From positions 12,719 through 76,718 of the forward strand of contig CALWAK010000001.1 in NCBI GenBank assembly GCA_944373095.1: a stretch of 64,000 bases of DNA. Reading direction: 5' to 3'. The first letter of the stretch is position 1, and each line of letters opens with the position of its first letter. Below the pieces are notes generated by a model that saw nothing but the letters and a program-made list of their open reading frames with translations, did not search any database and had not been told where the DNA came from. The translations under genes were made by a program, and so were the position numbers. This stretch comes from an uncultured Bacilli bacterium. Its GTDB lineage: Bacteria > Bacillota_I > Bacilli_A > RF39 > UBA660. Shown here piece after piece: positions 4,212-44,306 of this stretch.

Positions 4212-5088
4212 CTACTTTTTCAATAAATATTTCATTCAATGTTGGTTCTTCCACACAAAATTTAGTTATATTCTTTTGTTTGGCTACATAATTAAACACA
4301 TTAGATACAAAATTTTCATTTTTTACTCTTACTACTATCTCATTAGTTTCAATTATTTCTTCCACACCATCAATTTTTAATAATTCATCTTTATCCACAT
4401 TACCTATAATATGAATATTCTTTTTTCCATATTGCTTTTTTATATCTTTTAAATTACCTTCTAAAACACTTTTACCATGAACTAAAATAACTAATTTTTC
4501 ACAAAATAATTCAACATGTTCCATACGATGTGATGAGAATATTATTGATGTTCCTTTTTCTTTTAATTCATTAATAATATTCATAAATAACGCAACATTA
4601 ATTGGATCTAATCCACTAAAAGGTTCATCTAAAATTAATAATTTTGGATCATTTATTATTGCAGTAATAAATTGAACTTTTTGCTGATTTCCTTTACTTA
4701 ATTCCTTAATTTTTTTATCTTTATATTCTTTAATTTTAAGTTTATCTAAAAGAATATCTAATTTATTTAGAATATCTTCTTCTTTCATTCCTTTTAATAC
4801 ACCATAATAAATCACTTGCTCTTTAACTGTTAGCTTTAATAATAAACTTCTTTCTTCAGTCAAAAAACCAATTTTATCTGTTATTTTATAATTTATTGGT
4901 TTTCCATCTAAAGTGATTTTACCAGAATCTTTTTCTAATAACCCAATTATCATTCTAAATGTTGTTGTTTTTCCAGCACCATTAACTCCTAATAAGCCAA
5001 AAATTTCTCCATTAGCAACTTCAAATGATAAGTTATCAACAGCTTTTAAATTTCCATAACTTTTACTAACATTTTCTACTTTTAACAT
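4192..5088 (-). CDS. ABC transporter ATP-binding protein
   Basis: Walker A GVNGAGKTT, ABC signature LSKGNQQKV, Walker B LLILDEP, H-loop SSHRM. RBS AGGAGATAATT before the ATG. Confidence 0.85.
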   Translation of the reverse strand: MLKVENVSKSYGNLKAVDNLSFEVANGEIFGLLGVNGAGKTTTFRMIIGLLEKDSGKITLDGKPINYKITDKIGFLTEERSLLLKLTVKEQVIYYGVLKGMKEEDILNKLDILLDKLKIKEYKDKKIKELSKGNQQKVQFITAIINDPKLLILDEPFSGLDPINVALFMNIINELKEKGTSIIFSSHRMEHVELFCEKLVILVHGKSVLEGNLKDIKKQYGKKNIHIIGNVDKDELLKIDGVEEIIETNEIVVRVKNENFVSNVFNYVAKQKNITKFCVEEPTLNEIFIEKVGEEYEK

Positions 5089-5161: not shown

Positions 5162-8100
5162 TTATTCTTTACCAGTATTGTCATTAGTTACTATGCATCC
5201 GTAACTAGATAACTCATTTAAAAATTGAGAATCAGAATTTACTAATGTAAAATCATTAAATCCTAAATCATTTCTTTCTTGTTGTTTATTATATTCTCTA
5301 ATTTTTGCAGCACATTCTGCATCCATTACTAAACTATATACTGGTTCTTCACTATAAATACTTTCGCCCTTTTCTTCTATTTCATCTATAATTGTATCTA
5401 TTACTGTACCATCTGATGTTTCACCTACCCAGTTAAATCCTCTACTATCTTCTTTATTAGGAAATAAATTATTTAATGAAACTATTTTTGAGAAAAATTC
5501 TAATTTGCCATCAGATATGCTTGCACTATTATTATAATGATTATTTCCACCACCACTAGGACTTCCGCCTATACTTGATGAAAAACTGCCTTCAATTATT
5601 CCTGTACCACTGCAGTAGAAATTTTTACCACAAACAGCATTATATTCATCTATAGTATTTTGAGAAATTACCATTTTACCAAGTGCATCAACAAAATCAC
5701 AGCAACTGCTTGCAAGTAATTGACTTATACAATCATCAAGTGTAGAATCGTAACGACACAATTCACTTGAATATATAGATTTACATGTATCATCACCATC
5801 ATCATTATCTTCATCTGTTGAAGGAGGTACATCCTCACAATCAGGGTCATTTACAGCACAAACTGAATAATCACATAAATAATCATTTTTCTTATAACCT
5901 GTAATTGATCCAACAGCATTATTAATTGCACTATCAATAAAACCTATTCCAGTTGAAATGTTAACTGATGGTAGTATGGAAACATAGCCACTATCTCCTA
6001 AAACTCGTCCATATCTACTTTCGTTATTAAACATTTGTCCAACACCATTAAATGTTAATTTATATAAATAACTACCAGGCTCAGTTGTTAACTTAATTGG
6101 ATAAACTAAACCATCACCATCTATATATTTACTATCTTCTGTTAATGGTGTTAAAGAAACAATTCCTTTATCAGGTGTAGTATAAAAAGAGTATTTAGGT
6201 TTAAAATATATGAACGCTTTATCAGAAAACGTCCGGATTGCTTCTTGAAGGAATAAACTAATTACTGTTTCAGTGTTAACTCCACCATTTAGTCCAATAC
6301 CTGTATAACCATACATAGCAACACTTGCAAGGCGTTTAACGTCAAAATAATAATCATCTAAATTTAAGCTAACATATGATTTATCTGAAATTACTCCTAA
6401 ATCAAACAATGAAGCTCCTGTAGATATAACATTGGCTGAATTCGGTATTTGAACATCTTTCTTTTTAATACCAAATAGACTTGACTGCAAAGTATCAGAA
6501 GCAATTGAAGCTAAACCACTTAATATTCCACTACTATTTGAAAAAACATTAATTGCTGGCTTACAATTTGTATAAATATCTTTAACTTCTGTCATATTTT
6601 CGCAATATAAATTGTAACTAAAAGGATTTTTTGGTTCATTATCAATAACCAGTTCTTTATCATTAGAAATCATATTAATATATTCTTGTTCTTCGTAATC
6701 AAATTCTAATTCAACGCCAAAATCATACCCTTTCCCACTATTCCATCTTGTGCAATCTTTAATAAATGTCGTTTTTTCAAGTAATTTATCCCTGATTTCG
6801 TTATATTTATTTGCATATGAAATAGCAGAAGCAATTACTTTAGCAATTGCAATAATTGGTTGTGTTTCTTTTGCAATCGTTGGTGAAATTATTGCACCAT
6901 GGCAAGACCACGTTCCAACGCATGGAGATCCTCCAATGGTTGCTGTTCCATTCGTAGGAACAGGAATATCATAAGGATTTACATCACTTGTAGGAATTGT
7001 TCCATTATTTAAGGTCTCTGATATTGTTCCCATTAATGTTTTATCATGATCATCTATTTTTCCAATAAAAGATGCATCATTAGAGGAATTACCTTTTTTT
7101 GTTTTATCTGCTTTAACTATTTTTGCAGAAAGAACATCTTTTTCATTTGAATATTCAAATTCAAAATATTCATAATCAAAATTATAATCGTATTTTTCTA
7201 CATAATTTTCTTTAAAAGGCCATACTGGTGAATCTGAAAGACAAATGCCTTGAATACCATTAATAATAATTGTAAAAAAATTTTGAGTACAACCTTGGTT
7301 TCGAACCCTAACATTACTTTTATAAGTTGCAATATTTTCAGGAGTAAGTAACCATTTTAACATGCCAATATAATAGTAATATCTATTTAAATATGTTAAC
7401 ATGTTATTTTTTAAAGTCGTTGCATCTTCTTCATAATCATCAACCAATATTTCACTAGTTACGCATGATTTTTGAGTAGCGGCTCCCGCAATTGTATGTG
7501 TGTAACCATCAAGGTTAACAGGAATATATCTTCCTTGACTAAATTCACCTAAACTACCTGGTAATCTAAAAGCAAAATCTTCTTTACAAGATATTTTACA
7601 ATAATCATTTTCTAATACATTATAATTATTTCCAGCAGGATCTTGTTTATCAATTATACAATTATCCCAATCTACGGCCATTGTATTTAAATTTACACCT
7701 TCAATAATTAAATTTGTATTTGTTGTTGGTAAACATAAAAATGATTGAAATGTAAAACACTTAGCTTCATCTTCTCCACAACTCTCAGAAGTTGGAGTTT
7801 CTATTTGAGCTTCTATAGTAGTAGATTTAGCGTTTTCTTTGTTAAAGATTAAAAATCTTTGATAAGAACCTGCAGCATTTTCGCTAGATGCAGAAACTAT
7901 AAAAACATTATATAGGGATGAATCACTTGTATAATTACCACTAACTTTAATTTTAATATTACAGATTTCTTTATCAAAAGTACTATTTGATTTTACAGTA
8001 ATAACAGCAGTACTATTTTTATCCTTTTTTTGCCAATTATTTAATCCTTCAATTGTAAACATACTAGATATATCTTCACCCAAAGAATTGGTAATTGTAA

Positions 8101-8809
8101 CTTTTAAATCGCTTATTTTGGTCACATCTTCTATATTACTAGCTGTTAAATTAAACTTAATACCATTTTTAACATCATCACCACTACTTTTTTCTATTTC
8201 TAATTTAGCAGTATTCTGTAAGATAGAATCCTTTGTAGTCATTTTAGCTTTTGTTTCAACTTGTGTATAAATAGCAGCAGCGCTTGCTGGAGTAATAGAA
8301 TCATTTAAATAAGCATTTAAATTATCTTTATGATTACCAATTAAAAATCCACCTGATTCATTAGGATAATTTTTAACCAAATATCTAGATACTTGTGTAG
8401 CAATAAATAGGCCTTCATCAGTTTTATTTTTTAAATAATAATCAGTATATAAAAAGTATATTGCTCTACCAAATACAGTATCTAAATCTAATTCATTAGT
8501 AATTGTATAAGGTGTTTTTTTAGGGTTATCTCTTGCTGGGTCTATACAAATTGCATCATATTCAACTTCTTTACCATCATTACAACTTGATTTAGCTGTA
8601 TATGCCATTAAATAATAACCCATTGTATGCCTATATCCACCCCACATTGCATTACTAGGGTCATAATATTTTGAGTATAAATAGTAATTCCCGCTTCTTG
8701 TATTAATAGTTAAATATTTACAAAATTCATCTTCTGCTTTAACTTTATTAGCACTTAAAAATAGAAAAAAGAATAAGAATAGTAATAAACTTTTAAATTT
8801 TAAATTCAT
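5162..8809 (-). CDS. Giant secreted Cys-rich protein, paralog 2 (about 1215 aa); cassette component, putative adhesin
   Basis: Sec signal MNLKFKSLLLFLFFFLFLSANKVKA. Shares conserved blocks with the 15809..20305 protein (YDAxCIDPA, FGRAIYxLYxDYY, IATQVSR, a Cys-rich C-terminal region, and the conserved KLEF...NNLFPN...GFNWVG...GCIV tail). Start set at the ATG at 8809 with RBS GGAAGTGA; the track start at 8818 is GTG. Confidence 0.65.
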   Translation of the reverse strand: MNLKFKSLLLFLFFFLFLSANKVKAEDEFCKYLTINTRSGNYYLYSKYYDPSNAMWGGYRHTMGYYLMAYTAKSSCNDGKEVEYDAICIDPARDNPKKTPYTITNELDLDTVFGRAIYFLYTDYYLKNKTDEGLFIATQVSRYLVKNYPNESGGFLIGNHKDNLNAYLNDSITPASAAAIYTQVETKAKMTTKDSILQNTAKLEIEKSSGDDVKNGIKFNLTASNIEDVTKISDLKVTITNSLGEDISSMFTIEGLNNWQKKDKNSTAVITVKSNSTFDKEICNIKIKVSGNYTSDSSLYNVFIVSASSENAAGSYQRFLIFNKENAKSTTIEAQIETPTSESCGEDEAKCFTFQSFLCLPTTNTNLIIEGVNLNTMAVDWDNCIIDKQDPAGNNYNVLENDYCKISCKEDFAFRLPGSLGEFSQGRYIPVNLDGYTHTIAGAATQKSCVTSEILVDDYEEDATTLKNNMLTYLNRYYYYIGMLKWLLTPENIATYKSNVRVRNQGCTQNFFTIIINGIQGICLSDSPVWPFKENYVEKYDYNFDYEYFEFEYSNEKDVLSAKIVKADKTKKGNSSNDASFIGKIDDHDKTLMGTISETLNNGTIPTSDVNPYDIPVPTNGTATIGGSPCVGTWSCHGAIISPTIAKETQPIIAIAKVIASAISYANKYNEIRDKLLEKTTFIKDCTRWNSGKGYDFGVELEFDYEEQEYINMISNDKELVIDNEPKNPFSYNLYCENMTEVKDIYTNCKPAINVFSNSSGILSGLASIASDTLQSSLFGIKKKDVQIPNSANVISTGASLFDLGVISDKSYVSLNLDDYYFDVKRLASVAMYGYTGIGLNGGVNTETVISLFLQEAIRTFSDKAFIYFKPKYSFYTTPDKGIVSLTPLTEDSKYIDGDGLVYPIKLTTEPGSYLYKLTFNGVGQMFNNESRYGRVLGDSGYVSILPSVNISTGIGFIDSAINNAVGSITGYKKNDYLCDYSVCAVNDPDCEDVPPSTDEDNDDGDDTCKSIYSSELCRYDSTLDDCISQLLASSCCDFVDALGKMVISQNTIDEYNAVCGKNFYCSGTGIIEGSFSSSIGGSPSGGGNNHYNNSASISDGKLEFFSKIVSLNNLFPNKEDSRGFNWVGETSDGTVIDTIIDEIEEKGESIYSEEPVYSLVMDAECAAKIREYNKQQERNDLGFNDFTLVNSDSQFLNELSSYGCIVTNDNTGKE

Positions 8810-8814
8810 TATTT

Positions 8815-9528
8815 TCACTTCCTACTCCAATCATCTTCTATATCATATTTTTTATTTTTTAATTTCTTTTTCCATAAAAAAACGGTTAATCCTAAAATTA
8901 AAATTATTGCAATTATTATAAATACATAATAATTTTTTAAAAAATTTAATATATTGTTAATCCAACTTATATCTTCATCTTTAACATTGTCTTCTCTTTT
9001 AGCATAATTATTTATTCCAGATAAGAATTCATTTTGTGTTATTTTATCTAAGAAAACAAATTTATTACAATAATAATAGTCTGGATTCTCTAAACATTGA
9101 GGATAAGTGCTATATACATTAAAACGTGGTATATTTTCATATATTGTTCTAATTGGATTATTATCACAAGTGCCATCAACCGCCATGATATTAATTTGAT
9201 ACTCCTTAATATCATCAGTTATTCCTGTATCTATAATAATAGTATCGTCATCAGTTGAATAAAATTTACCAAGGTTTTTAACTTCAATGTATAGCTCATC
9301 AGTAACGTTATAAATATAAATTTTTCCATACCATGATGAGATCTTTACATTTTCACCAAAGCCTTCATCATAATATTCTTCAATCTTTTCATATAACTGA
9401 TATTCAGACGTTACTAATCCAGCTAAATCATTTAATTTTGCTTGATATTCGTAATTACATTCTGCATTAACACTATTGTTAAAACAAATTATTAATAGCA
9501 AAATTATAAATAAAAATATTTTTTTCAT
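8815..9528 (-). CDS. Small type-I membrane protein (signal peptide + C-terminal TM anchor), cassette-2 copy
   Basis: MKKIFLFIILLLIICFNNSVNA signal, conserved Cys pattern, and C-terminal TM (YVFIIIAIILILGLTVFLW) with a basic tail. Paralog of 20302..21015. RBS AGGGTGA. Confidence 0.55.
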   Translation of the reverse strand: MKKIFLFIILLLIICFNNSVNAECNYEYQAKLNDLAGLVTSEYQLYEKIEEYYDEGFGENVKISSWYGKIYIYNVTDELYIEVKNLGKFYSTDDDTIIIDTGITDDIKEYQINIMAVDGTCDNNPIRTIYENIPRFNVYSTYPQCLENPDYYYCNKFVFLDKITQNEFLSGINNYAKREDNVKDEDISWINNILNFLKNYYVFIIIAIILILGLTVFLWKKKLKNKKYDIEDDWSRK

Positions 9529-9548
9529 TTTTTCACCCTGTTTCTATG

Positions 9549-10286
9549 TTAAGAACAAGAAGTAGCATTTGTTATTATATATGCTTGATTGTTATTTATT
9601 GCCTGACTTAAAATTGGATCACTTAACATGTAATTTCTTAACTCATTCATATCTATATAACTATTTCTTATTATGCCAGGAAATTCAGGAATAATAGCTT
9701 GACGAAAATTAATTTTTCCATCTTTATATTCTTTTAAATAACTATAGCCATTGCTTGTTAAATATTCATTACTTAGTGATTTTATATAATTTTTAAAACT
9801 ATCATTAAAATGAATACAACAAATACTTTCTGAGCTACTATTAATATTATCGTTATTTTCAGATGAACTTTTTACTCCACCAACTAAAATTAAATCCATT
9901 TTATTAACTAAATTAAAGGAATTATTTACATCATTTGCAATATTTACCGAATTACTGTTACTTGAAATTTTAATACTAACTTTAGGTGGCAATTCATAAA
10001 TATCGTAAAATTCTATATTATATTGTTTAACTATTGTATTTGATTCTGCAAATCTTCTAATAAAATTTTCTAAAAATTTATCTTCGCTAATTTTAATATC
10101 GCCATATAAACGATAGTAAGAATAATCAATTGCATCAATCATTGCAGATTGAGTAACTTCTTTTAACATATAATAATCTTGGGTTGTTCCTGTTGTAACA
10201 CTATTTACTAGCATCATTACACCTATTATAAATACGCCTAATAAAATTAACCAATATGCCCAATATGTTGCTTTCAATATTATCAC
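9549..10286 (-). CDS. N-terminally anchored (single TM) protein, cassette-2 copy; possible pseudopilin/TadE-like accessory
   Basis: N-terminus ATYWAYWLILLGVFIIGVMMLVNS. The first about 100 aa are near-identical to 15096..15797 at both protein and nucleotide level. RBS AAGGAGTGAT. Confidence 0.55.
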   Translation of the reverse strand: MIILKATYWAYWLILLGVFIIGVMMLVNSVTTGTTQDYYMLKEVTQSAMIDAIDYSYYRLYGDIKISEDKFLENFIRRFAESNTIVKQYNIEFYDIYELPPKVSIKISSNSNSVNIANDVNNSFNLVNKMDLILVGGVKSSSENNDNINSSSESICCIHFNDSFKNYIKSLSNEYLTSNGYSYLKEYKDGKINFRQAIIPEFPGIIRNSYIDMNELRNYMLSDPILSQAINNNQAYIITNATSCS

Positions 10287-10343
10287 TCCTTGTATTCTAC
10301 TATTGCTATATTAATTTTAACATCTAATATTTGGATATACAAG

Positions 10344-10376
10344 AGCAAATAAAAAAGAGTGTTAATTACACTCAAA
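10344..10376 (-). terminator. Internal Rho-independent terminator between the TadC-like gene and cassette 2
   Basis: Transcript GAGUGU-AAUUA-ACACUC hairpin followed by UUUUUUAUUU; a TTGTAT-N17-TAAAAT promoter-like element lies immediately downstream. Confidence 0.5.
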
Positions 10377-10381
10377 AATTT

Positions 10382-11170
10382 TTATGATCCCATCATCTGT
10401 AAAACAGCGAATATTAATAAAACCATGACACCAAGTCCAGTTGCAATAAGCATACTCATTGTTTTATTCTCCATTTTATCTAATCTTTCTTTATATTTTG
10501 TATCACGAGCTTTTTGCTGTAATGAAGATATAGATCTTGAAAATGTTAATAATTGTTCTTGTTTACGTTCTTGCCTACCTAAACCTAAACGGTATAATAA
10601 ACGCATCATACGCATTGAATCTCTTACGGGATAAGTTCTAGCAAATTCCATATATGGTTCTATAGAAGAATCTCCTGCATTTATTTTTGCTATCATTGTA
10701 AGTAAACCTTTTTTAAAAATTTCAGGAGCTGTATCAACACTTTTACCAATTGCAACTGGTACAGTATAATGTTGTATTAATATCTCTAATCCCTTTAAAT
10801 AGTGTGGTAACATTGCATCAATAGTATGTAAATTATTTTTATAATAATTTTTTAATTTATTATAATCTAATTTAAAAACTAATATTCCAATTACAACTGC
10901 AACAATAAAATAAACATAACTTAAATTATTTATCATCAAACATATAATAATTAATGCAACTAATATCCCATTACTTATTCTTTTACCAAACAAATAATCG
11001 GGATCTACACCTTCGCCATATCTAGCTCTAACTAAAAAGTCATAATCATTTTCTTTAAATCTTCTAAAATAACTAACATTATCATTTATACACTTTTTTA
11101 CATCTATAACTTTAGTATAATTTAAAACTAACAAAAATAACCCACCTAATGCCAATATTTCAAAATACAT
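10382..11170 (-). CDS. TadC-like (type II secretion system F domain) inner-membrane platform protein
   Basis: 262-aa polytopic membrane protein; start overlaps the upstream stop (TAATG), as in TadB/TadC pairs. Confidence 0.55.
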   Translation of the reverse strand: MYFEILALGGLFLLVLNYTKVIDVKKCINDNVSYFRRFKENDYDFLVRARYGEGVDPDYLFGKRISNGILVALIIICLMINNLSYVYFIVAVVIGILVFKLDYNKLKNYYKNNLHTIDAMLPHYLKGLEILIQHYTVPVAIGKSVDTAPEIFKKGLLTMIAKINAGDSSIEPYMEFARTYPVRDSMRMMRLLYRLGLGRQERKQEQLLTFSRSISSLQQKARDTKYKERLDKMENKTMSMLIATGLGVMVLLIFAVLQMMGS

Positions 11171-12072
11171 TATTCTACCCCCACATCTTCATTGTAATAT
11201 TTTTCTCCTGAATGTAAGAAGTAACAGTTTATTAATATTATTCCATGTAACAATATTTTTACATACCATATTTCTATTAATTCAATATAAGAATCTCTAC
11301 CTAATAAAAATTGTATTACTGCAACTAGTAAAAAAAGTGCCATACCAAACGTTAAAAATTTCTTATGAAAGTTTGAACGATCCATTCGGTCACGATATAC
11401 ACCCTCTACTAAAGCATCAATATCGAGTGACATATTTTCTAAAGACTCTCCAGAATCTCTTGCACCTTCTTTAGTAATTTGATAAAAAAGTTGATGCATA
11501 TTTTTAATCATATAATATGGATATTTTTCGTTAAAATATGAAATAGATTGATCTATAGTACCATTAGCATAAGCCATATCTATCATCACTTTAACATCAT
11601 CTTTAACAGGTGACCCTAAAATTTGAGAATTATATACACCTTCTAAAGATTTTACAAAACTTTGAGTCGTATTAAATTCCATAATAACATTAGTACAGTA
11701 AGTTTGAATTTCTTCAAAAATATATTCTGAATATATTCTCTGAGTACGTAAATATGATAAATAAGGAATGGTAGATACAGCTGCAACTGCGTATATAACA
11801 GCCCAAACTAGACTATAAAAATATAAGTATGCTATACCACCAGCAACCCCTGCAAAAAGAATTATTTGGCCAATGTACTGCTTGATAGTATATTCTTCAC
11901 CTAATTCCTTAGTTTTTTCTCTTATTTGCTTATAACTATATGGTGCGTATTTTTCATACAAATTACCAATACCACTTTTTATAAATTTAAATGTTCCTTC
12001 AACATCAGTATCAGCATTTAATCTATAACTAATTGCATAAATTGCAAGAACTAGTAAAATTATTAATTCCAT
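11170..12072 (-). CDS. TadB-like (T2SSF domain) inner-membrane platform protein
   Basis: 300-aa membrane protein directly downstream of the CpaF-like ATPase. RBS GGGTGAT. Confidence 0.55.
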   Translation of the reverse strand: MELIILLVLAIYAISYRLNADTDVEGTFKFIKSGIGNLYEKYAPYSYKQIREKTKELGEEYTIKQYIGQIILFAGVAGGIAYLYFYSLVWAVIYAVAAVSTIPYLSYLRTQRIYSEYIFEEIQTYCTNVIMEFNTTQSFVKSLEGVYNSQILGSPVKDDVKVMIDMAYANGTIDQSISYFNEKYPYYMIKNMHQLFYQITKEGARDSGESLENMSLDIDALVEGVYRDRMDRSNFHKKFLTFGMALFLLVAVIQFLLGRDSYIELIEIWYVKILLHGIILINCYFLHSGEKYYNEDVGVE

Positions 12073-12081
12073 ATCATCACC

Positions 12082-13473
12082 CTATAATATATCTTCATTA
12101 TTATTTAAACTAATATTATTATTTAAATTTATATTAGGTTTAATTGTAGTATTTTCACTTGAAGATTGGGGATTATTCTGATTTAATATTGATGAATTTT
12201 GCTGAATAGAAGATATATTTTGAGCATAATTATTTTGATTATTGGTTAATGTAGTTGATTGTTGTGGGATTTGATTTTTATTAACATTGGCTGCAATACT
12301 AGCAAACACACTAGATTGCGTATTATTAGCATCTTTTAATACATCTTTTGTGTCTTTTAAAGCTTCAATTTTTGTCCTAGTATCTGTGCTATTATCTCCG
12401 TCTAATTCAGTATTACTCCCTAATCCGAATACATCTTCAGGTAACATAACATTTTGTATACTCATGTAATCTAACAATTTTTTTGTTGGATTTTTCAATA
12501 CAAAATGTCCATCAAGATTCTTTTTATAAATAATATTTACTTTTGGTTTGTTTTCTTCATCAACATAAAATTCACAAACTTCAATTATTTCTCTTTGAAA
12601 TCTATTATAAACTTTGCTAAAATATCCCTTTACGTATATTCCAATCTGGACATACCTATGAATGGTACTTAAAAACTGTTCTGGGTCTTGAGAAGATTCA
12701 AGTAATGAATACATACGCATTGGTATACTACTTGCTTTATCCGCATGAATAGTAGATAAAATATTATGACCAGATGAAATAGAATTTCGAACTGCCATAA
12801 CTGCTTCTGCACTACGTACTTCTGATAGTAAAATCCATTTAGGATTTTGCCTCATACAAGCAACTAATACGTCAGAATATGATGCTATATTATTAGTTTT
12901 CATTGCAACAATATCACGATGTGGAAAAATTTTATCTAAGTGAAGTTCTAAAGTATCTTCAATAGTAATAATTTTTTCATTTTCTTTTATGTGAGCAGCA
13001 AGATACTTTACAAGTTCAGTTTTACCAGAACCAGTTTCTCCTGAAACAATTATATTACAATGCCCTTCAACACATTTAATTAAAAAATCATGTAAATTCT
13101 CTATAACATACTTTTCATTTATTAATTTTTCTTTATTTAACCTTATTTTAGCAGGTGTTTTACGAATCAAACAAGCAATTCCATTTGTTGCTATTGAATC
13201 ATGAACAAAATTCATACGTAATTCTGCTGATTCTGCATCTAGCAATGGATGAGCCATATTAAAGGTTTTTCCCATTACATTAGAACATTGAAAAGCAAGT
13301 TTTTCCATAAAGGCATCATTAATATCCGGTCTATCAACTTGATAAACACCTTTAGATAATGTCTTTAACCAGACTTGTCCACCATTTGAGTAAGAAATAT
13401 CCGTAACATCATCCTCAGCTAAAAATTCTGCTAATGGGCCAAAGTCCATTTGCTCAAATATAGCACCATTCAT
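12082..13473 (-). CDS. CpaF/TadA-type secretion ATPase (VirB11-like) with a Q/N-rich C-terminal tail
   Basis: Walker A IIVSGETGSGKT, then ITIEDTLEL...ILLSEVRSAEAV...ILSTIHADKASS, matching CpaF/TadA motifs. About 110-aa low-complexity Q/N/S tail at the C-terminus. Confidence 0.8.
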   Translation of the reverse strand: MNGAIFEQMDFGPLAEFLAEDDVTDISYSNGGQVWLKTLSKGVYQVDRPDINDAFMEKLAFQCSNVMGKTFNMAHPLLDAESAELRMNFVHDSIATNGIACLIRKTPAKIRLNKEKLINEKYVIENLHDFLIKCVEGHCNIIVSGETGSGKTELVKYLAAHIKENEKIITIEDTLELHLDKIFPHRDIVAMKTNNIASYSDVLVACMRQNPKWILLSEVRSAEAVMAVRNSISSGHNILSTIHADKASSIPMRMYSLLESSQDPEQFLSTIHRYVQIGIYVKGYFSKVYNRFQREIIEVCEFYVDEENKPKVNIIYKKNLDGHFVLKNPTKKLLDYMSIQNVMLPEDVFGLGSNTELDGDNSTDTRTKIEALKDTKDVLKDANNTQSSVFASIAANVNKNQIPQQSTTLTNNQNNYAQNISSIQQNSSILNQNNPQSSSENTTIKPNINLNNNISLNNNEDIL

Positions 13474-13492
13474 AACATCAACCCTTTTCTTT

Positions 13493-14263
13493 TTAATTTA
13501 TTTGTGCACAATTATTTAATATATAATTTGTTAATTCACTAGAAGATACCATAGTAGCGCCCTCTTCTTTAGTATAATTTGCATTTCTTGGTACAGGAAT
13601 TATTTCAACATTTGAAACGTACTCACTTTTTTTCAACAAATCAAATAGTGAATCTTCTACTTCAAATAACATTGCAGCAGGTGTACCTCCAGAAATAGTA
13701 TTTTCTAACAATGAATTACCATTACTATCCTTAATTGCTTTAATTTTTATAGATTTTACAAGTATTGCCATAATTACCTTACCATTATCTTTTGCTTGCA
13801 TATATAAATCTATATAATCTCCAGGTCTTAAACGATTAGAATAAGTAGAATTATTATTAACTTTCAAAGAATAGACAGTATAACCATCCTGCATACTCAT
13901 AAACGCATAATCTGGCATCTCTTGTTCTTCTAAAATTACCTCTTTATAAAATAAACTTTTTGCCGGTATGCTAGTTGAATAACTAGAATAATAATTTATT
14001 AATTCTTCATCACTAGTTATTATATTCTTAGCCGAATTAACTAAAGAAGCAGGAACTTTAACATGTCCTATCATATCTTTTGTAATTTGGGTTTTTTTAG
14101 GGATTTCTTTTAAAGCATATGGTACAGTAACCAAATCTGTTGCAACACTTACGCGATAATTATAACCAATAACTAATGTTAATACTCCAAGAACAATACA
14201 AATAATTGTAACAGTGTTTTTGTTTTTTAAAAATTTTTTAAAAGGTGTTAAAATATTACTCAT
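13493..14263 (-). CDS. CpaB/RcpC-like Flp pilus assembly protein (N-terminal TM + SAF domain), copy 2
   Basis: N-terminal TM, then LVTVPYALKEIPKKTQITKDMIGHVKVPASLV SAF-like segment. C-terminal beta domain ends AMLFEVEDSLFDLLKKSEYVSNVEIIPVPRN. Paralog of 14278..15081. Confidence 0.6.
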   Translation of the reverse strand: MSNILTPFKKFLKNKNTVTIICIVLGVLTLVIGYNYRVSVATDLVTVPYALKEIPKKTQITKDMIGHVKVPASLVNSAKNIITSDEELINYYSSYSTSIPAKSLFYKEVILEEQEMPDYAFMSMQDGYTVYSLKVNNNSTYSNRLRPGDYIDLYMQAKDNGKVIMAILVKSIKIKAIKDSNGNSLLENTISGGTPAAMLFEVEDSLFDLLKKSEYVSNVEIIPVPRNANYTKEEGATMVSSSELTNYILNNCAQIN

Positions 14264-14277
14264 AAATTTCCTTTCTC

Positions 14278-15081
14278 TTATTGATTAACATAACTATTTT
14301 GAAAGTCAACACCAATATTAATTGATTTAGACAAAATATAATTTTCAATATATTGACTATCTATTGTTGGTTCTCTATCATAAGAAGAATAACTAGCATT
14401 TCTTGGTATTGGCATTACTTCAATACCACCACTAATATATTCTGTTTTTTTAAGTAGCGTATATAATTCATCAGGTACTGCAAACCACATTTGACGTGGT
14501 GATCTATCATCAGCTGATGATTCAAAGACATCATTTCCATTACTATCTAGTACCGCTAAAACTTTTATTCCTTCAATTAATCTTCCAAATATTATTTTAT
14601 TATTATCATCTACAGCTTTAACATATAAATCTACATAATTTCCAGTATATATTGAATTTCCATATGTAGAATCAATATCAACCGCTAAATTGTATGCAGT
14701 ATAACCATCCTTCATATCAGAAAATTCTGTTTTAATTGCTTCTTCAAAATTAACAATAATACTTGAATAGAAAAAACTATTTGCTGGTATTGTATTTCCA
14801 TATTTAACATAATTACCATTAATGCTTATAGAGTTAGTTACAATCCCAAGTGAGCTAGCAATCTTTTTAGGAATCTCCGTATATCCGATCATCTCAGCAG
14901 TTATTTGTGTACGACTAGTTATTTCAACTTTAGCATAAGGCACTTTTATTAGCGTTACCGCTTGATTTACCCTGTTATTATATATTGCATATAGTACTAT
15001 AATCCCAGCTAACACAATAAGAATTGTAAGCGTATTCTTATTACTTAATATTTTTTTAAATTCTTCTTTTACATTACCCAT
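14278..15081 (-). CDS. CpaB/RcpC-like Flp pilus assembly protein (N-terminal TM + SAF domain), copy 1
   Basis: TM (TLTILIVLAGIIVLYAIY), then LIKVPYAKVEITSRTQITAEMIGYTEIPKK (SAF), then VDLYV...KVLAVLD...WFAVPDELYTLLKKTEYISGGIEVMPIPRN, matching the CpaB pattern. Start set at the ATG at 15081 with RBS AAGGAGA. Confidence 0.65.
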   Translation of the reverse strand: MGNVKEEFKKILSNKNTLTILIVLAGIIVLYAIYNNRVNQAVTLIKVPYAKVEITSRTQITAEMIGYTEIPKKIASSLGIVTNSISINGNYVKYGNTIPANSFFYSSIIVNFEEAIKTEFSDMKDGYTAYNLAVDIDSTYGNSIYTGNYVDLYVKAVDDNNKIIFGRLIEGIKVLAVLDSNGNDVFESSADDRSPRQMWFAVPDELYTLLKKTEYISGGIEVMPIPRNASYSSYDREPTIDSQYIENYILSKSINIGVDFQNSYVNQ

Positions 15082-15095
15082 TTTATTCTCCTTAA

Positions 15096-15797
15096 TTAAC
15101 TGCAATAAGTAGCATTGTTAACAATATATACCCAATTTTTTTCAATAGCTTCTTTAAAAAATGGTTCGGAAAGCATTTCGCGACTTAATTCTGCAGCACT
15201 ACTTGAATTATGAATCCAAGCAAACTGACTAGATATTGCTTGTCTAAAATTTGTAGTTCCTCCATCATCCTTCCATTTTTGCAAATACGCATAATTAGAT
15301 ACATCATTAGACATTATATATTCTTTAAAATCATCATCAAAATGCAAGCAGCAAATACTTTCGTATCCACTAGTGCCACTAGAGCCATTATTTACTCCAC
15401 CAATTAATATAACATCAATAGTATCGACTAATTCAACTGCGTTATTAGAAGTGTTAGCAATATTAAATGAATTACTAACACTTGAAACTTTAACGCTTAC
15501 TTTAGGAGGAACTTCATGAATATCATAAAATTCAACGGTGTAATTTTTTGATAAAGTTGTAGATTCTACAAACCTTCTAATAAAATTTTCAGCAAATTTT
15601 TGTTCACTCATTCTTATATCACCATAAAGTCTATAATATGAGTAATCAATTGCATCAATCATTGCAGATTGAGTAACTTCTTTTAGCATATAATAATCTT
15701 CTGTACTTCCAGTAGTAGCACTATTTACTAACATCATTACACCGATTATAAATACACCTAATAATATTAACCAATACGCCCAATATGACGATTTCAT
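15096..15797 (-). CDS. N-terminally anchored (single TM) protein, cassette-1 copy
   Basis: MKSSYWAYWLILLGVFIIGVMMLVNS; paralog of 9549..10286. RBS AGGAGGAAG. Confidence 0.55.
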   Translation of the reverse strand: MKSSYWAYWLILLGVFIIGVMMLVNSATTGSTEDYYMLKEVTQSAMIDAIDYSYYRLYGDIRMSEQKFAENFIRRFVESTTLSKNYTVEFYDIHEVPPKVSVKVSSVSNSFNIANTSNNAVELVDTIDVILIGGVNNGSSGTSGYESICCLHFDDDFKEYIMSNDVSNYAYLQKWKDDGGTTNFRQAISSQFAWIHNSSSAAELSREMLSEPFFKEAIEKNWVYIVNNATYCS

Positions 15798-15808
15798 AAG
15801 TCTTCCTC

Positions 15809-18800
15809 CTAATCAAAGTCTTTTTCAACAATACATCCAGCAGCTTCTAATTGAGCTAAGAATGTAGAAGTATCATATGTACCACTACTATTCATACTTA
15901 ATGTATAATCATTAAATCCTAAACTATTGTTTTCTTGAGTATTGTTATACTCTAAAATTTTAGCACGACATGTAGCATTTATTACTATTTTAAAATCAGG
16001 TTCATTATTATAAATAGATTCACCAGCACTCTCAATATCTTCAATTATACTTCCAATACTAGTTCCATCATGAGTAGTACCAACCCAGTTAAAGCCTTTA
16101 CTATCAGAAGAATTAGGGAATAAGTTATTTAATGATACAGATTTTGGTGTAAATTCTAATTTCCCATTAACTATTATTGCGGAGCCCGTATCATTAGATG
16201 TTCCGTTATTTCCTTCTATAATTCCAAAACCTTGGCAATATTTTTGTTTTGGACATACTGCATTATATCTATCTACCATATTAATTGTCATTTTATTTAA
16301 ATTAATAACTTCATCACAGCATTCTTTATCAAGTAGTGCAGAAATACATTCATCTAAATCTTCTATATCCCCACTCTTACAAACATCACTAGCTAAGATA
16401 TTTGAACATACTTCGTTACCATCTGGAGTATTATCACAATTAGGGTCATCAATTGCACATACTGTGTATTTACATAAATATGAATCACTTTCATTAACTG
16501 TTAAGTATCCTTCTTGACCATTATTATTTCCCATAATACGTCCTAAAGTATCATCAGTCATAAAATATTGACCAATATTTTTAAATGTTAATTTGTAATC
16601 ATAAATACCTGCAGGTGTAGTTAATTTAATTGGATATACTAAGCCATCTGGTTTTGTACCATCTGGTCTATTCTTATCACCAATATCAATTAACGTACTA
16701 TCGTCTGTATTATCAGTAGTAACGATACCTTTATTTGGATGAGTATAGAAAGGAACGCTTGATTTATAATAAATTAATTCTGGTTCTTTTCTAGTACCAT
16801 CTAACGCCACACCAGGATCACCATATTTAACAATTCCAGTAATTCTCTTGTACTCGTAATAAATTTCATCAGTTGATTTTGTAGCATTTTCAATTGAACT
16901 ATTAGGAACTTTAACAGTAATTTTATTATCATCAGAAACGCTTGTAGAACAACTACCAGTTTCAACTACTGTTTCTTTATTATCTTCACAATAATATCCT
17001 AATGTTGTTGATGTTACTTCTTTTTCAGGTTGTAGTTTATTATTACCATTCATCATATCAATATATTCATTTTCAGCATAATCAAATCTAATTTCAGGTT
17101 CAAATTCATAAGAATCTTTTAACTTTTCTTCATCTGTCCAAGTAGTACAATCTTGAATTTTATCTACTTGATTATTTAATTTATTTAAAGCATCATTATA
17201 ATCTTTTTGAGCTGTAGAAATTCCATTATTTATGTTAGATAATAATTCATTATAGTTATTTTTCTTTATTGAATTTCCAAAAATATTATCAATTATATTA
17301 TTACCTGTGCCAGATGTTTGACTATTTTTACTACCCTCAACAATTAGCCTATGGCTTGCTGAACTAGTTAAGAGAACTATATTAGACTCAATTATATCAT
17401 GAGAAGTTGAAGAATTTTCAAATTTATATATAGAATATGTATAATTAATTATGCTATTTGATGTAGGATCATCTAAGCAATCGCTATTTTCTAATGCTTC
17501 TTTTTGAGCCTTATACTTATAGTATCTATTAACAGCATCTAATAAATCCTTCTTCTGCTCAACTGAATCTTTTAAAAACTTCTCTGTCATAACTTCACTA
17601 GTGACACAAGTCTTTTGACCAGCTAATCCAGCAACTGCATGATAATGTTTATCTAGATTTATTGAAATATATCTACCTTGAGCAAAGCCGTTTCCATTTG
17701 CAGAATATTGATTTAAGTTTCCAGGAACTTTAAAGGCATAATCCTCTTTACAATAAATTGCACAGTACCCATTATCTTCTTGTAATTCGTAAGTATTGCC
17801 ATTTGGATCTTTTCCTCCAGATACATTACCATCTTCACCTTCTTCTCCAATTATACAAGATTCCCATTTTACATTAGAATCTTTAGCTTCTGTACCTTCA
17901 ACAACATAAGTTACACTTGATGCATCATCACATGTATATTCTGCTACTGGAGTACAAGCACTATTAGAGTTACAAGTTTTATTAACTTTAAAATTTTCAT
18001 AATCATTTATATTTGAAACGCCACTCTTGTTAAAAATTAAGAATCTTTGTAATGTTCCAGATGAAGTTGTTGAAGTTGCAATACCTATATTAGCAACATC
18101 ATTTTCACCATTATATTTAGCACTTGCAAGTAATATTACCTCGCAAACATCTTCATCAAGATTAAATGCTTTTACTGTAACTTCCATGACATAATCTTTA
18201 TCTTTTTGCTTCCATTCACCTTTTGAAATAGTAAACATTGATGAAATGTCTTTTTTAGTATTATTATCAACTACATATAAATTCAAATCTGTTACTTTAC
18301 TTATATCAGTAACATTTTTAGCAGTGACAATAAATTTTATTCCATCTTCTACATTATCACCACTAGAATGACTTACATCTATACTTACTTCACTAGCACT
18401 AAAATCTTCTGATTTAGCTTTATTTAATACATCTTCATAAATAGCTCTTACATCACTTGTAACTGCACTATTCATATATGCTTGAGCTTTATCTTTGTAT
18501 GGGCCATTATCCCAACCTAAAAACTCATATTTACCATCCTTTATTTTACCTAATAAGAATCTTGAAACTTGGGTAGCTATATATAAATCTTTTGCAGTTT
18601 TTCCAGTATTAGCATAATAATCTCTATACAAAATATAAATTGCCCTACCAAATTCAGTATTTAAATCTACCGTATCTGTAATATTGTAATATGACCTACT
18701 ATCGCCATTTTCTTTTTGGTGTGGTCCATGCATTGCAGGATCTATACAAAATGCATCATAAATTGTAGTCTTATCATCTGTACAATTTGCAGTAGCTTCA

Positions 18801-20305
18801 TATAAATGGATTCCACTTTGACCATTATAAGTACTATATCCCTTAAATCCATCTACATTGCTTGGATAAAAACCATTTTGAAATATTTTTAGCGAAGTAC
18901 AAGTATTTTGAGTAGTGCTACTAGAACTATTGCTAGTATTAAAATTATTTCCTAAAATACCACTAACTTGGCCGTTATTTATCAAACCATTTATGATATC
19001 TTCTAATTTTACCGAATTATTATTGCCTTGAATACTATTTAAAATATTAGTAATAGTTTCATTGCTATTTCCACCTAAAATAACGTTAATTGCATCTTTG
19101 ATAACTGTGCTACTATATTTATTTATAGTATCACTAATAATTTTATCAATATTACCAGTATTTCCGTCCTTAATTACTTGATTAACAATATCAGTTAACA
19201 TATTTTTAATAGTATTATTAACATTTACATCATTTCCTATAGAAGTACTAATTGTTCTTGGATCAAATTGAATTAAACTATAAAAGCAATTAGTTGGAAC
19301 AGCTTGATTTTTTCCAATATATTTATAACCATCTTCACAAACGTAATATCCACCAGGGCTTGTCATAGATATTCCATCTTGACCTAAAACAATACCACCA
19401 ACTTTAGTATTAATTATAGCTTGAGGACTAATTCCATAATTTCCTTTATTATCAGAAGAAACATCTATCTTTAAAGTATATGAATCTACACCTAAATTTG
19501 ATATAGCTTCACTAGTCTTACAAGTAATTGAACAGCTTCCATTATTTGTAGCTGTAATATTTACCTTTCCGTCTACAACTAAATAACTTGCAACACCACA
19601 AGTACCACTACAAGACTCAGTTGAGAAATTTTTATTTAAATTTAGAAGTGTGCCTAATTGAAATGTTACATCATCTCCAGTGGTAGTATCTGTTGAACCG
19701 CCTGTTGAACTAGAGCCAGAGCCGGTTGAACTAGAACCACCTGAACTTGTTGAACCACCGGTTGAACTAGAATCACCTGTTGAATCTTGATGTTCTGAAT
19801 CATCTTCTTTAGTCACATTAACTCGATAAAGATTGTTGCCAACATAAGCAATTGCAAAGCAAGTTTTATTTTCAGCAACTAGTTTACATGAAGTATTCCC
19901 ATTGCTATCTTTAGTTGCTGTTGTTTTAAGACAGCTCTCATCACTAGATTTACAAGTAGGTGATTCAGATGTTACCGATAAAGATCCCATTGAACTTCCA
20001 TATTCTAAATTCAAATATCTAATTCTACCAACTTTAACAGTATAATTTTTGTATCCATCATTACCAACTGATACATTAGCAACGCAACTTTGACCATATG
20101 CTTTTAAAGTACATACGTTATCTTTTAAAAGTGCAGATACACAAGCTTTATTATAACTAACGCAAACATTAGAATCACTAAATTCCATTTCTTGAAATGG
20201 ATATAAATAAGCATCACTTGCATTAACTTTAAAACCAAAACCAAATATACATATTAAAGAAAATAATGATATTGATAATTTTTTATAATTAACTAATTTT
20301 TTCAT
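15809..20305 (-). CDS. Giant secreted Cys-rich protein, paralog 1 (1498 aa); putative adhesin
   Basis: Sec signal MKKLVNYKKLSISLFSLICIFGFGFKVNA, an S/G/T-rich linker and many Cys. Conserved blocks shared with 5162..8809. Start overlaps the upstream stop (ATGA). Confidence 0.65.
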   Translation of the reverse strand: MKKLVNYKKLSISLFSLICIFGFGFKVNASDAYLYPFQEMEFSDSNVCVSYNKACVSALLKDNVCTLKAYGQSCVANVSVGNDGYKNYTVKVGRIRYLNLEYGSSMGSLSVTSESPTCKSSDESCLKTTATKDSNGNTSCKLVAENKTCFAIAYVGNNLYRVNVTKEDDSEHQDSTGDSSSTGGSTSSGGSSSTGSGSSSTGGSTDTTTGDDVTFQLGTLLNLNKNFSTESCSGTCGVASYLVVDGKVNITATNNGSCSITCKTSEAISNLGVDSYTLKIDVSSDNKGNYGISPQAIINTKVGGIVLGQDGISMTSPGGYYVCEDGYKYIGKNQAVPTNCFYSLIQFDPRTISTSIGNDVNVNNTIKNMLTDIVNQVIKDGNTGNIDKIISDTINKYSSTVIKDAINVILGGNSNETITNILNSIQGNNNSVKLEDIINGLINNGQVSGILGNNFNTSNSSSSTTQNTCTSLKIFQNGFYPSNVDGFKGYSTYNGQSGIHLYEATANCTDDKTTIYDAFCIDPAMHGPHQKENGDSRSYYNITDTVDLNTEFGRAIYILYRDYYANTGKTAKDLYIATQVSRFLLGKIKDGKYEFLGWDNGPYKDKAQAYMNSAVTSDVRAIYEDVLNKAKSEDFSASEVSIDVSHSSGDNVEDGIKFIVTAKNVTDISKVTDLNLYVVDNNTKKDISSMFTISKGEWKQKDKDYVMEVTVKAFNLDEDVCEVILLASAKYNGENDVANIGIATSTTSSGTLQRFLIFNKSGVSNINDYENFKVNKTCNSNSACTPVAEYTCDDASSVTYVVEGTEAKDSNVKWESCIIGEEGEDGNVSGGKDPNGNTYELQEDNGYCAIYCKEDYAFKVPGNLNQYSANGNGFAQGRYISINLDKHYHAVAGLAGQKTCVTSEVMTEKFLKDSVEQKKDLLDAVNRYYKYKAQKEALENSDCLDDPTSNSIINYTYSIYKFENSSTSHDIIESNIVLLTSSASHRLIVEGSKNSQTSGTGNNIIDNIFGNSIKKNNYNELLSNINNGISTAQKDYNDALNKLNNQVDKIQDCTTWTDEEKLKDSYEFEPEIRFDYAENEYIDMMNGNNKLQPEKEVTSTTLGYYCEDNKETVVETGSCSTSVSDDNKITVKVPNSSIENATKSTDEIYYEYKRITGIVKYGDPGVALDGTRKEPELIYYKSSVPFYTHPNKGIVTTDNTDDSTLIDIGDKNRPDGTKPDGLVYPIKLTTPAGIYDYKLTFKNIGQYFMTDDTLGRIMGNNNGQEGYLTVNESDSYLCKYTVCAIDDPNCDNTPDGNEVCSNILASDVCKSGDIEDLDECISALLDKECCDEVINLNKMTINMVDRYNAVCPKQKYCQGFGIIEGNNGTSNDTGSAIIVNGKLEFTPKSVSLNNLFPNSSDSKGFNWVGTTHDGTSIGSIIEDIESAGESIYNNEPDFKIVINATCRAKILEYNNTQENNSLGFNDYTLSMNSSGTYDTSTFLAQLEAAGCIVEKDFD

Positions 20306-21015
20306 TTTTTCTTTCCCTTTCTCTTATAAACTTTTATATAAAATATGTATCCCCCAGCACTTAAACAAGCAACTAATATTGCAATTGGAACCCAATTGTT
20401 TTTTAATAAATCTACTGCTTGTCCTATTATCCCTTCTTTATCCTCTTCTTCCTTTCTTTTTGCATAATCTTCAATTCCTTTATAAAATTCTTTTTCAGAA
20501 ATATTATCTAAAAAAACAAATTCACTACAGTAATAATAATCAGGATACTCATCACATTGACTATATATACTAAATAAATTATAACGTGGAATCGAAATAT
20601 CAATTGTACGAATAACATTATCTATACATGAAGAATCAGTAGCGTAAACTTCTATCTTATATTTTTTTACTTCATTAGCCATCCCTGTTCCAACATATAT
20701 AACATTGTCAGCTGAAACATCATCTATTGTATATTTTCTAGAATTTCCATTATTATCTATAACATTTATATAAATATCTTCAGTTATATTATAAATATGA
20801 ATTAACCCATACCAATAAGAATCAGTTACATACTCTCCATATGTTTCATCATAATAGTCATTCTCATACAAAAAGGTTTCATACTCTGCCCTAACTGCAC
20901 CTGCAGCATTGTTTATTTTTGCTTGTGTTTCATAGTCACATTCAGCATATACGTAGTTTGTAAAACATAAAAATAACATAAAAGGTACAAGCACTAAAAC
21001 CTTTTTCATTTTCAT
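20302..21015 (-). CDS. Small type-I membrane protein (signal peptide + C-terminal TM), cassette-1 copy
   Basis: MKMKKVLVLVPFMLFLCFTNYVYA signal and C-terminal TM (WVPIAILVACLSAGGYIFYI). Paralog of 8815..9528. Start set at the ATG at 21015, preceded by GGGTGGTG. Confidence 0.55.
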   Translation of the reverse strand: MKMKKVLVLVPFMLFLCFTNYVYAECDYETQAKINNAAGAVRAEYETFLYENDYYDETYGEYVTDSYWYGLIHIYNITEDIYINVIDNNGNSRKYTIDDVSADNVIYVGTGMANEVKKYKIEVYATDSSCIDNVIRTIDISIPRYNLFSIYSQCDEYPDYYYCSEFVFLDNISEKEFYKGIEDYAKRKEEEDKEGIIGQAVDLLKNNWVPIAILVACLSAGGYIFYIKVYKRKGKKK

Positions 21016-21040
21016 AGCACCACCCACATTTCTACATTTA

Positions 21041-21069
21041 ATTCTATCATGAATATAGTAATCTTACAA
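21041..21069 (-). promoter_or_regulatory. Sigma-A-type promoter for the Tad-like/cassette-1 operon
   Basis: Minus-strand TTGTAA-N17-TAGAAT, about 25 nt upstream of the first cassette gene. Confidence 0.4.
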
Positions 21070-41091: not shown

Positions 41092-41102
41092 ATACACTCC
41101 TT

Positions 41103-43043: not shown

Positions 43044-43077
43044 CTCTACCATCCTAAAAAGATTATAGCAAATAATA

Positions 43078-43990: not shown

Positions 43991-44306
43991 ATTTTCCCTC
44001 CTTAACATAAGACACGCCTTTAAGGTGACCTAAAGTTCTTTTTTACCTTTTTAGTGCGGTTTTAAAGAAAGCCCTTAAAACGCTTTAATTCTATCAAGAA
44101 TTTTAAAATATGTCAAACAATTTATACTAATTATAGTATAAAATTAATTTTTTTATAAAAAAATTATACAACTAAGAAAGAAAATTAAACTAAATTTTTT
44201 TAATTTTACTAAAATAGTTATATAAGTTTTATTTTAAATATTTATTAAAAGAAAAATTTAGCTTTATTTAAATTTTAAAGCATAATTATTTTTGTTTTAA
44301 ATTTAA

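Follow-up and report, generated by a model that had tools for sequence, protein, structure and literature searches.

A chromosomal operon in an uncultured Bacilli bacterium that links a divergent Tad-like motor with giant proteins apparently related to thioester-domain adhesins

The stretch of DNA analyzed in this study (64 kb, hereafter called the window, with coordinates relative to its first letter) belongs to contig CALWAK010000001.1 of an uncultured Bacilli bacterium and is very AT-rich (~25% GC). The window contained 11 co-directional, tightly packed open reading frames (ORFs) on the minus strand across positions 5162-21027, which are transcribed in the order S2, G2, N2, CpaB-a, CpaB-b, ATPase, B, D, N1, S1, and G1. 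The gene set comprised two paralogous cassettes, each encoding a small partner protein (S), a giant secreted protein (G), and an N-terminally anchored protein (N), in addition to two CpaB-like genes, one secretion ATPase gene, and two genes for platform-like membrane proteins (B and D). The same genes were called on the identical metagenome contig L001. We consider it moderately probable that this chromosomal operon belongs to a conserved family of highly divergent envelope machines, which are tight-adherence (Tad)-like, within the type IV filament superfamily, and VirB11-related, and that the machine family is dedicated to a giant thioester-domain adhesin.

A preliminary description, made from the letters of the DNA, had reported two paralogous S/G/N cassettes, and the ORFs, the gene calls on L001, and the following identities agreed with it. 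N1 and N2 shared 62% identity (E 2e-98), S1 and S2 shared 45% (E 1e-48), and G1 and G2 shared 37% in two blocks (E 1e-87 and 8e-79). At the level of sequence, the paralogy of the cassettes is unambiguous and far above chance. The identity between N1 and N2 was uneven, with 76% over aa 1-135, the half with the transmembrane (TM) segment and DUF5411, and 50% in the C-terminal part. Translational coupling from S to G, also proposed in that description, was found in both cassettes: the stop and start codons overlap by 4 nt at the S2/G2 junction, and the S1 stop is followed by 5 nt when the ATG start of G1 is taken. A 4-nt overlap between S and G was present at 45 of 63 junctions in related loci. 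The G proteins are rich in Cys (30 residues in G1 and 42 in G2) and carry an N-terminal signal peptide only, without a C-terminal TM segment and without an LPXTG or other sorting signal, and the S proteins end in a TM segment followed by a basic tail.

The conserved core of G, delimited by iterative search, corresponds to the whole of G1 and to residues ~460-1498 of G2. In its ~300 N-terminal residues, five positions were invariant in all 20 diverse members aligned, namely the Cys, Asp, and Pro of a (Y/F)CxDP motif, one Arg, and the Gln of a QRF motif located 230-320 residues further on. The window proteins carry these motifs as AICIDP (C91) and YQRF (Q320) in G1, whose residue numbers count from a 1218-aa ORF, and as AFCIDP (C520) and LQRF (Q753) in G2. 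Of the 20 members, 5 matched the Pfam family TED_2 and 4 matched TED, the two families matched most often, and the best E was 2.8e-5. In TIEpLS20, the thioester adhesin of plasmid pLS20, Cys68 (YCID) is essential by mutation and Gln256 (SSYQRL) has been modelled as its partner (PMC8092201). We confirmed both positions with a numbering offset of 11, and the YCxDP and YQRF motifs of G coincide with YCID(P) and YQRL of TIEpLS20, an equivalence of motif and spacing rather than of confident alignment. These results suggest that G is, by its sequence motifs, a divergent relative of thioester-domain (TED) adhesins, with the thioester bond itself being predicted. A helical "fibronectin-binding protein" that came up when the full-length G profile was compared with the PDB (E 0.37) was judged to be spurious.

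Two large-database searches for G homologues yielded at least 10 close relatives. A Peptidase_M23 domain (2.5e-32) was identified at aa 915-1009 of the G protein of the related locus L021 (1695-5927), and a Peptidase_M15/VanY domain at aa 127-286 of protein P0123 (second G of locus L004, third G copy of a near relative). Judging from these domain matches, two different peptidoglycan hydrolase domains have been joined to G-family proteins independently, which argues that G is located at the cell wall. The fusions might also suggest a contact-dependent role of the operon toward other bacteria, for instance in epibiotic attachment or in an attack on the cell wall, with G acting as a wall-targeting effector or adhesin. 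In addition, the lineage of the host, with its small low-GC genomes, probably depends on partner organisms. Nevertheless, this explanation appears very unlikely, since G1 and G2 of the window lack a hydrolase domain, no immunity-like gene is evident, and hydrolase fusions would fit remodelling of the cell's own wall equally well, as with VirB1, PrgK, and CwlT.

The preliminary description had called the ATPase CpaF/TadA-like. The ATPase matched the Pfam family T2SSE (7.8e-28), and its best solved relative in the PDB was Caulobacter CpaF (5.7e-20), followed by FlaI and VirB11, whereas GspE, PilB, and PilT were weaker than CpaF by at least 10 orders of magnitude. Among NCBIfam models, VirB11, conjugal TadA, and TrbB ranked on top, all far under their cut-offs. 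By this ranking the ATPase is a divergent member of the CpaF/FlaI/VirB11 group and not of the GspE/PilB/PilT type, so that the earlier assignment was sustained at the level of this group and a GspE/GspF-type classification, which we tested, was not found. The C-terminal tail of the ATPase (~120 aa, aa ~345-463; window 12082-12440, minus strand) is of low complexity and rich in Asn, Gln, and Ser, and ATPase lengths among the relatives range from 360 to 559 aa, mostly through variation of this tail.

The two CpaB-like proteins shared 41% identity (E 2e-68). The RcpC model gave 19.6 and 24.7 bits for the two window proteins, under its gathering threshold of 28.8, and TIGR03177 matched at 1.3e-7. 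Across the family, RcpC was matched by 40 of 42 members and SAF by 13 of 42. The CpaB/RcpC assignment, as first proposed for two SAF proteins, therefore stands at the family level of sequence comparison. The proposal of separate TadB- and TadC-like platform proteins held in part: the structure model of B shows a GspF/PilC fold, and support for D is weak. Neither B nor D gave a sequence match to T2SSF. The two align colinearly over 233 columns (E 0.0039, with an hhalign probability of only 8.5%), and the topology of both is TadB/C-like.

Both N proteins contain DUF5411 (PF17424), at 169.8 bits for N2 and 173.5 bits for N1 compared with a gathering cut-off of 30. A DUF5411 protein was found in every system of the operon family, the loci of which were collected by a DUF5411 scan, and in the clade that includes the window, the N proteins have an additional domain at the C-terminus. 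Proteins of the N, E-like, and pilin-like families alike begin with MKE[SA], after which comes a hydrophobic helix. The idea that N is a paralogue of the pilin-like proteins was set aside, because the hhalign relationships were weak (E 0.019 for N and E-like proteins, and E 0.0015 for E-like and pilin-like proteins).

The scan with the DUF5411 alignment, with one genome per species, gave 76 loci (numbered with the prefix L). Nearly all came from uncultured gut metagenome-assembled genomes labelled Bacilli, Tenericutes, or Erysipelotrichaceae, or from CAG genomes such as Coprobacillus sp. CAG:605, Mycoplasma sp. CAG:956, and Clostridium sp. CAG:609, which we take to represent an RF39-type order. 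With 11 proteins mapped, the full colinear core S-G-N-C-(C)-A-B-D (C, CpaB-like; A, ATPase) was present in most of the 76 loci, and it was incomplete at contig ends and in the most distant loci L069-L077, in which S or G was not detected. Iterative search identified the 900-2450-aa protein encoded between S and N as a G homologue in L001-L071. The operon was among the most conserved multi-gene surface systems in the loci, as mean column identity reached 73% for B and 66% for D, compared with 46% for N, 37% for C, 36% for S, and 17% for the adhesin G.

This comparison also modified the view that the two cassettes bracket the machinery. The orders S-G-N in the upstream cassette and N-S-G in the downstream cassette were correct, but the conserved unit is S-G-N-C-(C)-A-B-D and the second cassette is lineage-specific. 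Because the second N-S-G unit was restricted to the window and its nearest relatives (L003 and L004), and because it lies behind a terminator-like hairpin, it is a local add-on. The bracketing and the circular permutation thus reflect this add-on and not the design of the system. In other lineages, S-G units have been multiplied at other positions (L055 and L068).

The location of the second cassette behind the hairpin would also suit the explanation that the adhesin cassettes merely adjoin a Tad-like gene set and have no functional link with it, and the physical link among S, N, and G is inferred only. We regard this as the least probable explanation, one that can hardly be maintained, since most of the 76 species-level loci show the same gene order despite a neighbourhood that is not conserved in the nearest relatives, and since a TED adhesin is linked to a motor in pLS20 as well.

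The coordinates of the operon features are listed below.

Table 1. Features of the operon, in the order of transcription
Feature	Position	Strand	Description
S2	20302-21009	minus	Sec signal peptide, ~180-aa extracytoplasmic domain, 4 invariant Cys, C-terminal TM segment and basic tail
G2	15809-20305	minus	1498 aa, secreted, Cys-rich; ~460-aa lineage-specific extension, then conserved G core
G2 thioester-like (TED) domain	17936-18913	minus	~aa 465-790; predicted from Cys C520 in FCIDP and Gln Q753 in LQRF
N2	15096-15797	minus	N-terminally anchored; DUF5411 (PF17424, 3.6e-50) and C-terminal DUF7893-like domain
CpaB-like a	14278-15081	minus	N-terminal TM segment and divergent SAF/RcpC-type ectodomain
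CpaB-like b	13493-14263	minus	Paralogue of CpaB-like a, 41% identity
ATPase	12082-13473	minus	CpaF/FlaI/VirB11 group; Walker A GETGSGKT at aa 145, His box STIHA at aa 240
B	11170-12072	minus	Polytopic, 5 predicted TM segments; GspF/PilC-fold cytoplasmic domain (TadB-like); pLS20 p38 homologue
D	10382-11170	minus	Polytopic, 4 predicted TM segments; TadC-like by topology; weak B paralogue, weak pLS20 p39 match
Terminator-like hairpin with T-run	10357-10373	minus	Inside the 95-nt D-N1 gap; end of the conserved core operon
N1	9549-10277	minus	Second DUF5411 protein (2.5e-51)
S1	8815-9528	minus	Second small partner protein
G1	5162-8809	minus	1215 aa, secreted, Cys-rich; equals the conserved G core
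G1 thioester-like (TED) domain	7784-8725	minus	Predicted from Cys C91 in ICIDP and Gln Q320 in YQRF

In the window clade, the last residues of the N proteins are ...(S/Y)CS (N1 at 9549-9560 and N2 at 15096-15107), and the G proteins, including G1 and G2, have a conserved ...GCIV... motif at the C-terminus. Together with the four invariant Cys of S, these residues hint at intermolecular disulfides between the proteins. Directly downstream of G1 and in the same direction (window 2347-5088, minus strand), the two components of an ABC-2 exporter are encoded together with a thioredoxin that is anchored in the membrane and has a CAAC motif, with Pfam scores of 9.4e-32 for ABC_tran, 2.7e-23 for ABC2_membrane_3, and 1.4e-6 for Thioredoxin. 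These products may help with thiol-disulfide exchange in S and G, which are rich in Cys. The operon is flanked by housekeeping genes (dnaJ, pepF, the dnaK operon, and the ABC exporter), and the neighbourhood comparison showed that the dnaJ neighbourhood is not kept in the nearest relatives. MurT is encoded in the window, indicating that a peptidoglycan wall is made. A promoter scan was uninformative in this AT-rich window, with 146 sites found compared with 141 expected from shuffles.

Intergenic spacing was at most 20 nt throughout the operon with the single exception of the D-N1 gap (95 nt), and therefore there is no space for a hidden small pilin gene inside it. The Flp motif G|xxxxEY was found in no frame of the 64-kb window, and the pilin-like genes of the relatives had no homologue in it. 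With regard to TadZ/CpaE, searches by tblastn with the 326-329-aa proteins of sister loci gave no match in the window, and among the window ORFs there was no candidate for the prepilin peptidase TadV, the GxGDxK motif occurring in no membrane ORF. Within the 64-kb window, these results bear out the preliminary statement that Flp prepilin, TadZ/CpaE, and prepilin peptidase are lacking in or near the operon.

About 40 more distant sister loci contained additional genes directly 3' of D (for example, L039 at 14906-18230 and L075 at 14700-19803). These genes encode one or two proteins of 80-100 aa that begin with MKEATGELNxTV followed by a hydrophobic helix (pilin-like), one or two N-anchored proteins of 150-170 aa, a ~329-aa protein without a Pfam match, which we suspect to be TadZ-like, and two small membrane proteins with weak T4SS_pilin matches. 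The small pilin-like proteins had neither the Flp motif G|xxxxEY nor a Pfam match. None of the extra genes was present at the locus in the window clade (L001-L022 and L042). Since ~40 sister loci carry pilin-like genes, the family of systems is not intrinsically pilin-less.

These sister loci raise another explanation, that the operon encodes an ordinary, very divergent Tad-type pilus, with the genes for pilin, pseudopilin, TadZ-like protein, and peptidase located elsewhere and with G as an adhesin at the pilus tip or associated with the pilus, or as an independent surface protein. In addition, the window encodes two proteins with the N_methyl motif, and a prepilin peptidase is therefore expected elsewhere in the genome. 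We consider an ordinary pilus unlikely, because the genes of the sister loci have no homologue in 64 kb and are missing at the operon in the whole window clade, the N proteins of this clade have an extra C-terminal domain, and the small proteins of the sister loci lack both the Flp motif and a Pfam match.

The two N_methyl proteins (648 and 649 aa; window 39151-41097 and 41103-43052, minus strand) are paralogous, with near-identical N-terminal halves, and start with a canonical type IV prepilin signal, KKG|FTIVELL, with the Pfam family N_methyl over its gathering threshold, so that they appear as giant modular pilin-like proteins. A third large protein (1057 aa; 44307-47480, minus strand) resembles pilins at its N-terminus (MNKKG|FVSSSL...) but lacks Glu at +5. 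It contains a glycine-rich domain of the ALK/LTK type (1.6e-35) in addition to four Listeria-Bacteroides (Flg_new) repeats (2.1e-49). Upstream of rplU-ysxB-rpmA-like genes, an L21 ribosomal leader was identified at 44000-44071 on the minus strand (RF00559, 41.2 bits). Two further paralogues with common N-terminal regions are encoded at 52974-54206 and 54259-56115 (minus strand), the larger of which has a weak LRR_5 annotation in a public collection.

A relative of the operon was identified among plasmids. The best tblastn matches of the ATPase were the "VirB11-like/tadA" genes of the pLS20 family of Bacillus subtilis, with 32% identity. On pLS20 (L079, NC_015148.1, 8389-11529), genes 36, 38, and 39 were homologous to the DUF5411 protein and the two platform-like proteins. 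The genes are arranged as TIE (gene 34), small ORFs, p36 (126 aa, with an N-terminal TM segment), p37 (the ATPase), p38 (267 aa), and p39 (245 aa), followed by p40, p41, and later VirD4. The broadened B profile matched p38 over its whole length (68.8 bits), the D profile matched p39 at 19.4 bits, and N1 matched p36 at 17 bits. In Pfam, p36 matched DUF5411 (1.4e-5) and pLS20 TIE was matched by TED/TED_2. From the homology of genes 36, 38, and 39, a Tad-like motor module would lie within a Gram-positive conjugation operon. The literature covered gives p36 and p38-41 as unknown and p37 as a putative VirB11, an uncommon component in Gram-positive systems, and it treats conjugation in Gram-positive bacteria as taking place without pili (PMC8557374, PMC11730352).

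The homology with pLS20 genes 34-39 makes it conceivable that the operon acts in mating-pair formation, as the front end of a type IV secretion system (T4SS) for conjugation or as a domesticated remnant of one, and would attach donor to recipient for DNA transfer. Loci L075-L077 continue into a TrbL/VirB6-like gene (Pfam TrbL_4, 3.3e-10) and a small gene that is PrgI-like by eye and has no Pfam match. In L083, genes for DUF5411, RcpC, T2SSE, and B/D-like proteins are joined to one for a protein with a weak PXO2_28_C match, and weak T4SS_pilin-like small genes lie 3' of the operon in many loci. A conjugative function is nonetheless improbable, in our judgement more so than an ordinary pilus. 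Among the window ORFs, assessed partly with Pfam and otherwise by eye, we recognised no T4SS core protein (VirD4, VirB4, VirB6, or VirB8), relaxase, integrase, or oriT linkage. The window flanks consist of housekeeping genes, clear T4SS genes occurred in only 3 of the 76 loci, and the operon is kept across many species of one lineage, like a core trait. In a more distant chromosomal variant (L081/L082, 9209-12774), RcpC, B-like, D-like, and 330-aa genes adjoin ribosomal protein genes, and no neighbouring T2SSE gene was called.

Returning to the explanation of an envelope machine dedicated to a thioester-domain adhesin, it is plausible that the machine works for the giant proteins and not for a Flp pilus. 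In such a machine, G would be exported by the Sec pathway, and S would tether G at the membrane, because G lacks an anchor, S ends in a TM segment, and the two genes are coupled by their start and stop codons. N is probably an adaptor of pilin-like type between each S-G pair and the platform, since N is duplicated together with S and G, its TM/DUF5411 half is conserved, and its C-terminal half varies. The CpaB pair may form a collar spanning the wall, and ATP hydrolysis would power a short assembly resembling a pilin filament, by which G is pushed or presented through the peptidoglycan. The predicted thioester of G could then bind a target surface covalently, either a host or mucus glycoprotein or another cell. 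The second N-S-G unit would provide one motor with two alternative adhesins.

Several points weigh against the envelope-machine explanation. The G1 and G2 domains of the window, taken singly, gave no Pfam TED match, PDB profile searches with G did not retrieve BaTIE, and hhalign of the N-terminal domain of G with TIEpLS20 aligned only the Cys motif, with 20% probability. In the most distant loci L072-L077, the large protein encoded upstream lacks the Cys motif. N has no canonical class III signal (G/A/T precedes the hydrophobic stretch and Glu at +5 is missing), its AlphaFold model was poor over the DUF5411 part, and a fold search with N was uninformative. The role of D as a second platform protein rests on weak similarity. 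The moving part of the machine is without a candidate here, because pilin, peptidase, and TadZ were not found in the window, and the window clade may keep pilin-like genes elsewhere in the genome. Finally, we infer from membership of the same operon that the products belong to the same machine, and likewise that S, N, and G are physically linked.

More tentatively, the operon may encode a pilin-poor, Tad-derived "adhesin launcher", in which the motor, the split platforms, and the DUF5411 adaptors extend, and perhaps retract, a thioester adhesin through the Gram-positive wall. Located at the front of conjugation operons of the pLS20 family, the module would then be the functional counterpart, so far missing, of a conjugative pilus in Gram-positive bacteria, and uncultured gut Bacilli would have domesticated it to attach to a host or partner. 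We consider this elaborated version doubtful. Nevertheless, the orphan family DUF5411, a predicted "membrane machinery", and pLS20 genes 36-39, which are separate in the literature searched, apparently represent one Tad-like motor module coupled to thioester adhesins. This addresses the question of how donor and recipient attach without pili in Gram-positive bacteria, and pLS20 in B. subtilis is genetically tractable. For gut Bacilli with reduced genomes, the operon is a strong candidate for the main attachment device.

The preliminary description had matched the architecture to no described system. This was not upheld, as pLS20 genes 34-39 are a relative and a DUF5411/CpaF machinery was predicted in 2022 (PMC9523054). 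The pLS20 genes share with the operon a colinear set of a thioester adhesin, a small N-anchored DUF5411-like protein, an ATPase, and homologues of B and D. On the other hand, both CpaB-like genes and an S partner are missing from pLS20, the TIE protein there is 768 aa long with Cna-like stalk domains, and the module lies inside a full T4SS and relaxase operon on a plasmid.

The 2022 study, based on a language model and computational without experiments, described a "secretion-related" operon of Clostridia with CpaF, PilC, and DUF5411 (PMC9523054). This machinery (Miller, Stern and Burstein 2022, PMC9523054) resembles the window operon in its CpaF-type ATPase, its GspF/PilC-like protein, and its adhesin/invasion-like protein. 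It differs in having a single PilC-like protein of ~434 aa, DUF5411 proteins of 112-127 aa, and internalin-like proteins (PMC9523054 supplement). It also has no S-G-N-CpaB-CpaB layout, and no connection to thioester adhesins or pLS20 was drawn (PMC9523054).

Among class II TIE adhesins (BaTIE and TIEpLS20), the shared features are the Cys in [YFL]C followed by a hydrophobic and a hydrophilic residue, the downstream Gln in YQR[FL], and the nature of large secreted surface proteins. The domain follows the signal peptide in G1 and a ~460-aa N-terminal extension in G2. The G domain is far more divergent, with matches to Pfam TED/TED_2 only at the family level. Instead of Cna/Ig stalks, G continues with a Cys-rich region of ~800 aa without known domains, and it has neither a sortase signal nor its own TM anchor.

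With Tad/Flp systems, the operon shares an ATPase with CpaF as its closest relative among solved structures, two separate single-domain proteins that resemble platform proteins, of which one has a modelled GspF/PilC fold, and N-anchored proteins of the CpaB/RcpC type, with all window components under the curated family cut-offs. Unlike these systems, the window has no Flp prepilin, TadE/F, TadZ/CpaE, or TadV, and it adds the conserved DUF5411 protein, S, and giant TED-like proteins, as well as a duplicated CpaB gene. The type II secretion pseudopilus is comparable as a mechanistic analogue only, in that a short, non-extended assembly of pilin-like type, driven by an ATPase with a GspF-fold platform, could push a folded protein outward after its export by Sec. 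The window ATPase, however, is not of the GspE type, GspG-like pseudopilins and a secretin are missing, and the host is a monoderm with a peptidoglycan wall. In these comparisons, the locus is a new combination built from known kinds of parts, and its chief interest lies in the link between Tad-like motors, DUF5411, and thioester adhesins, including those of pLS20.

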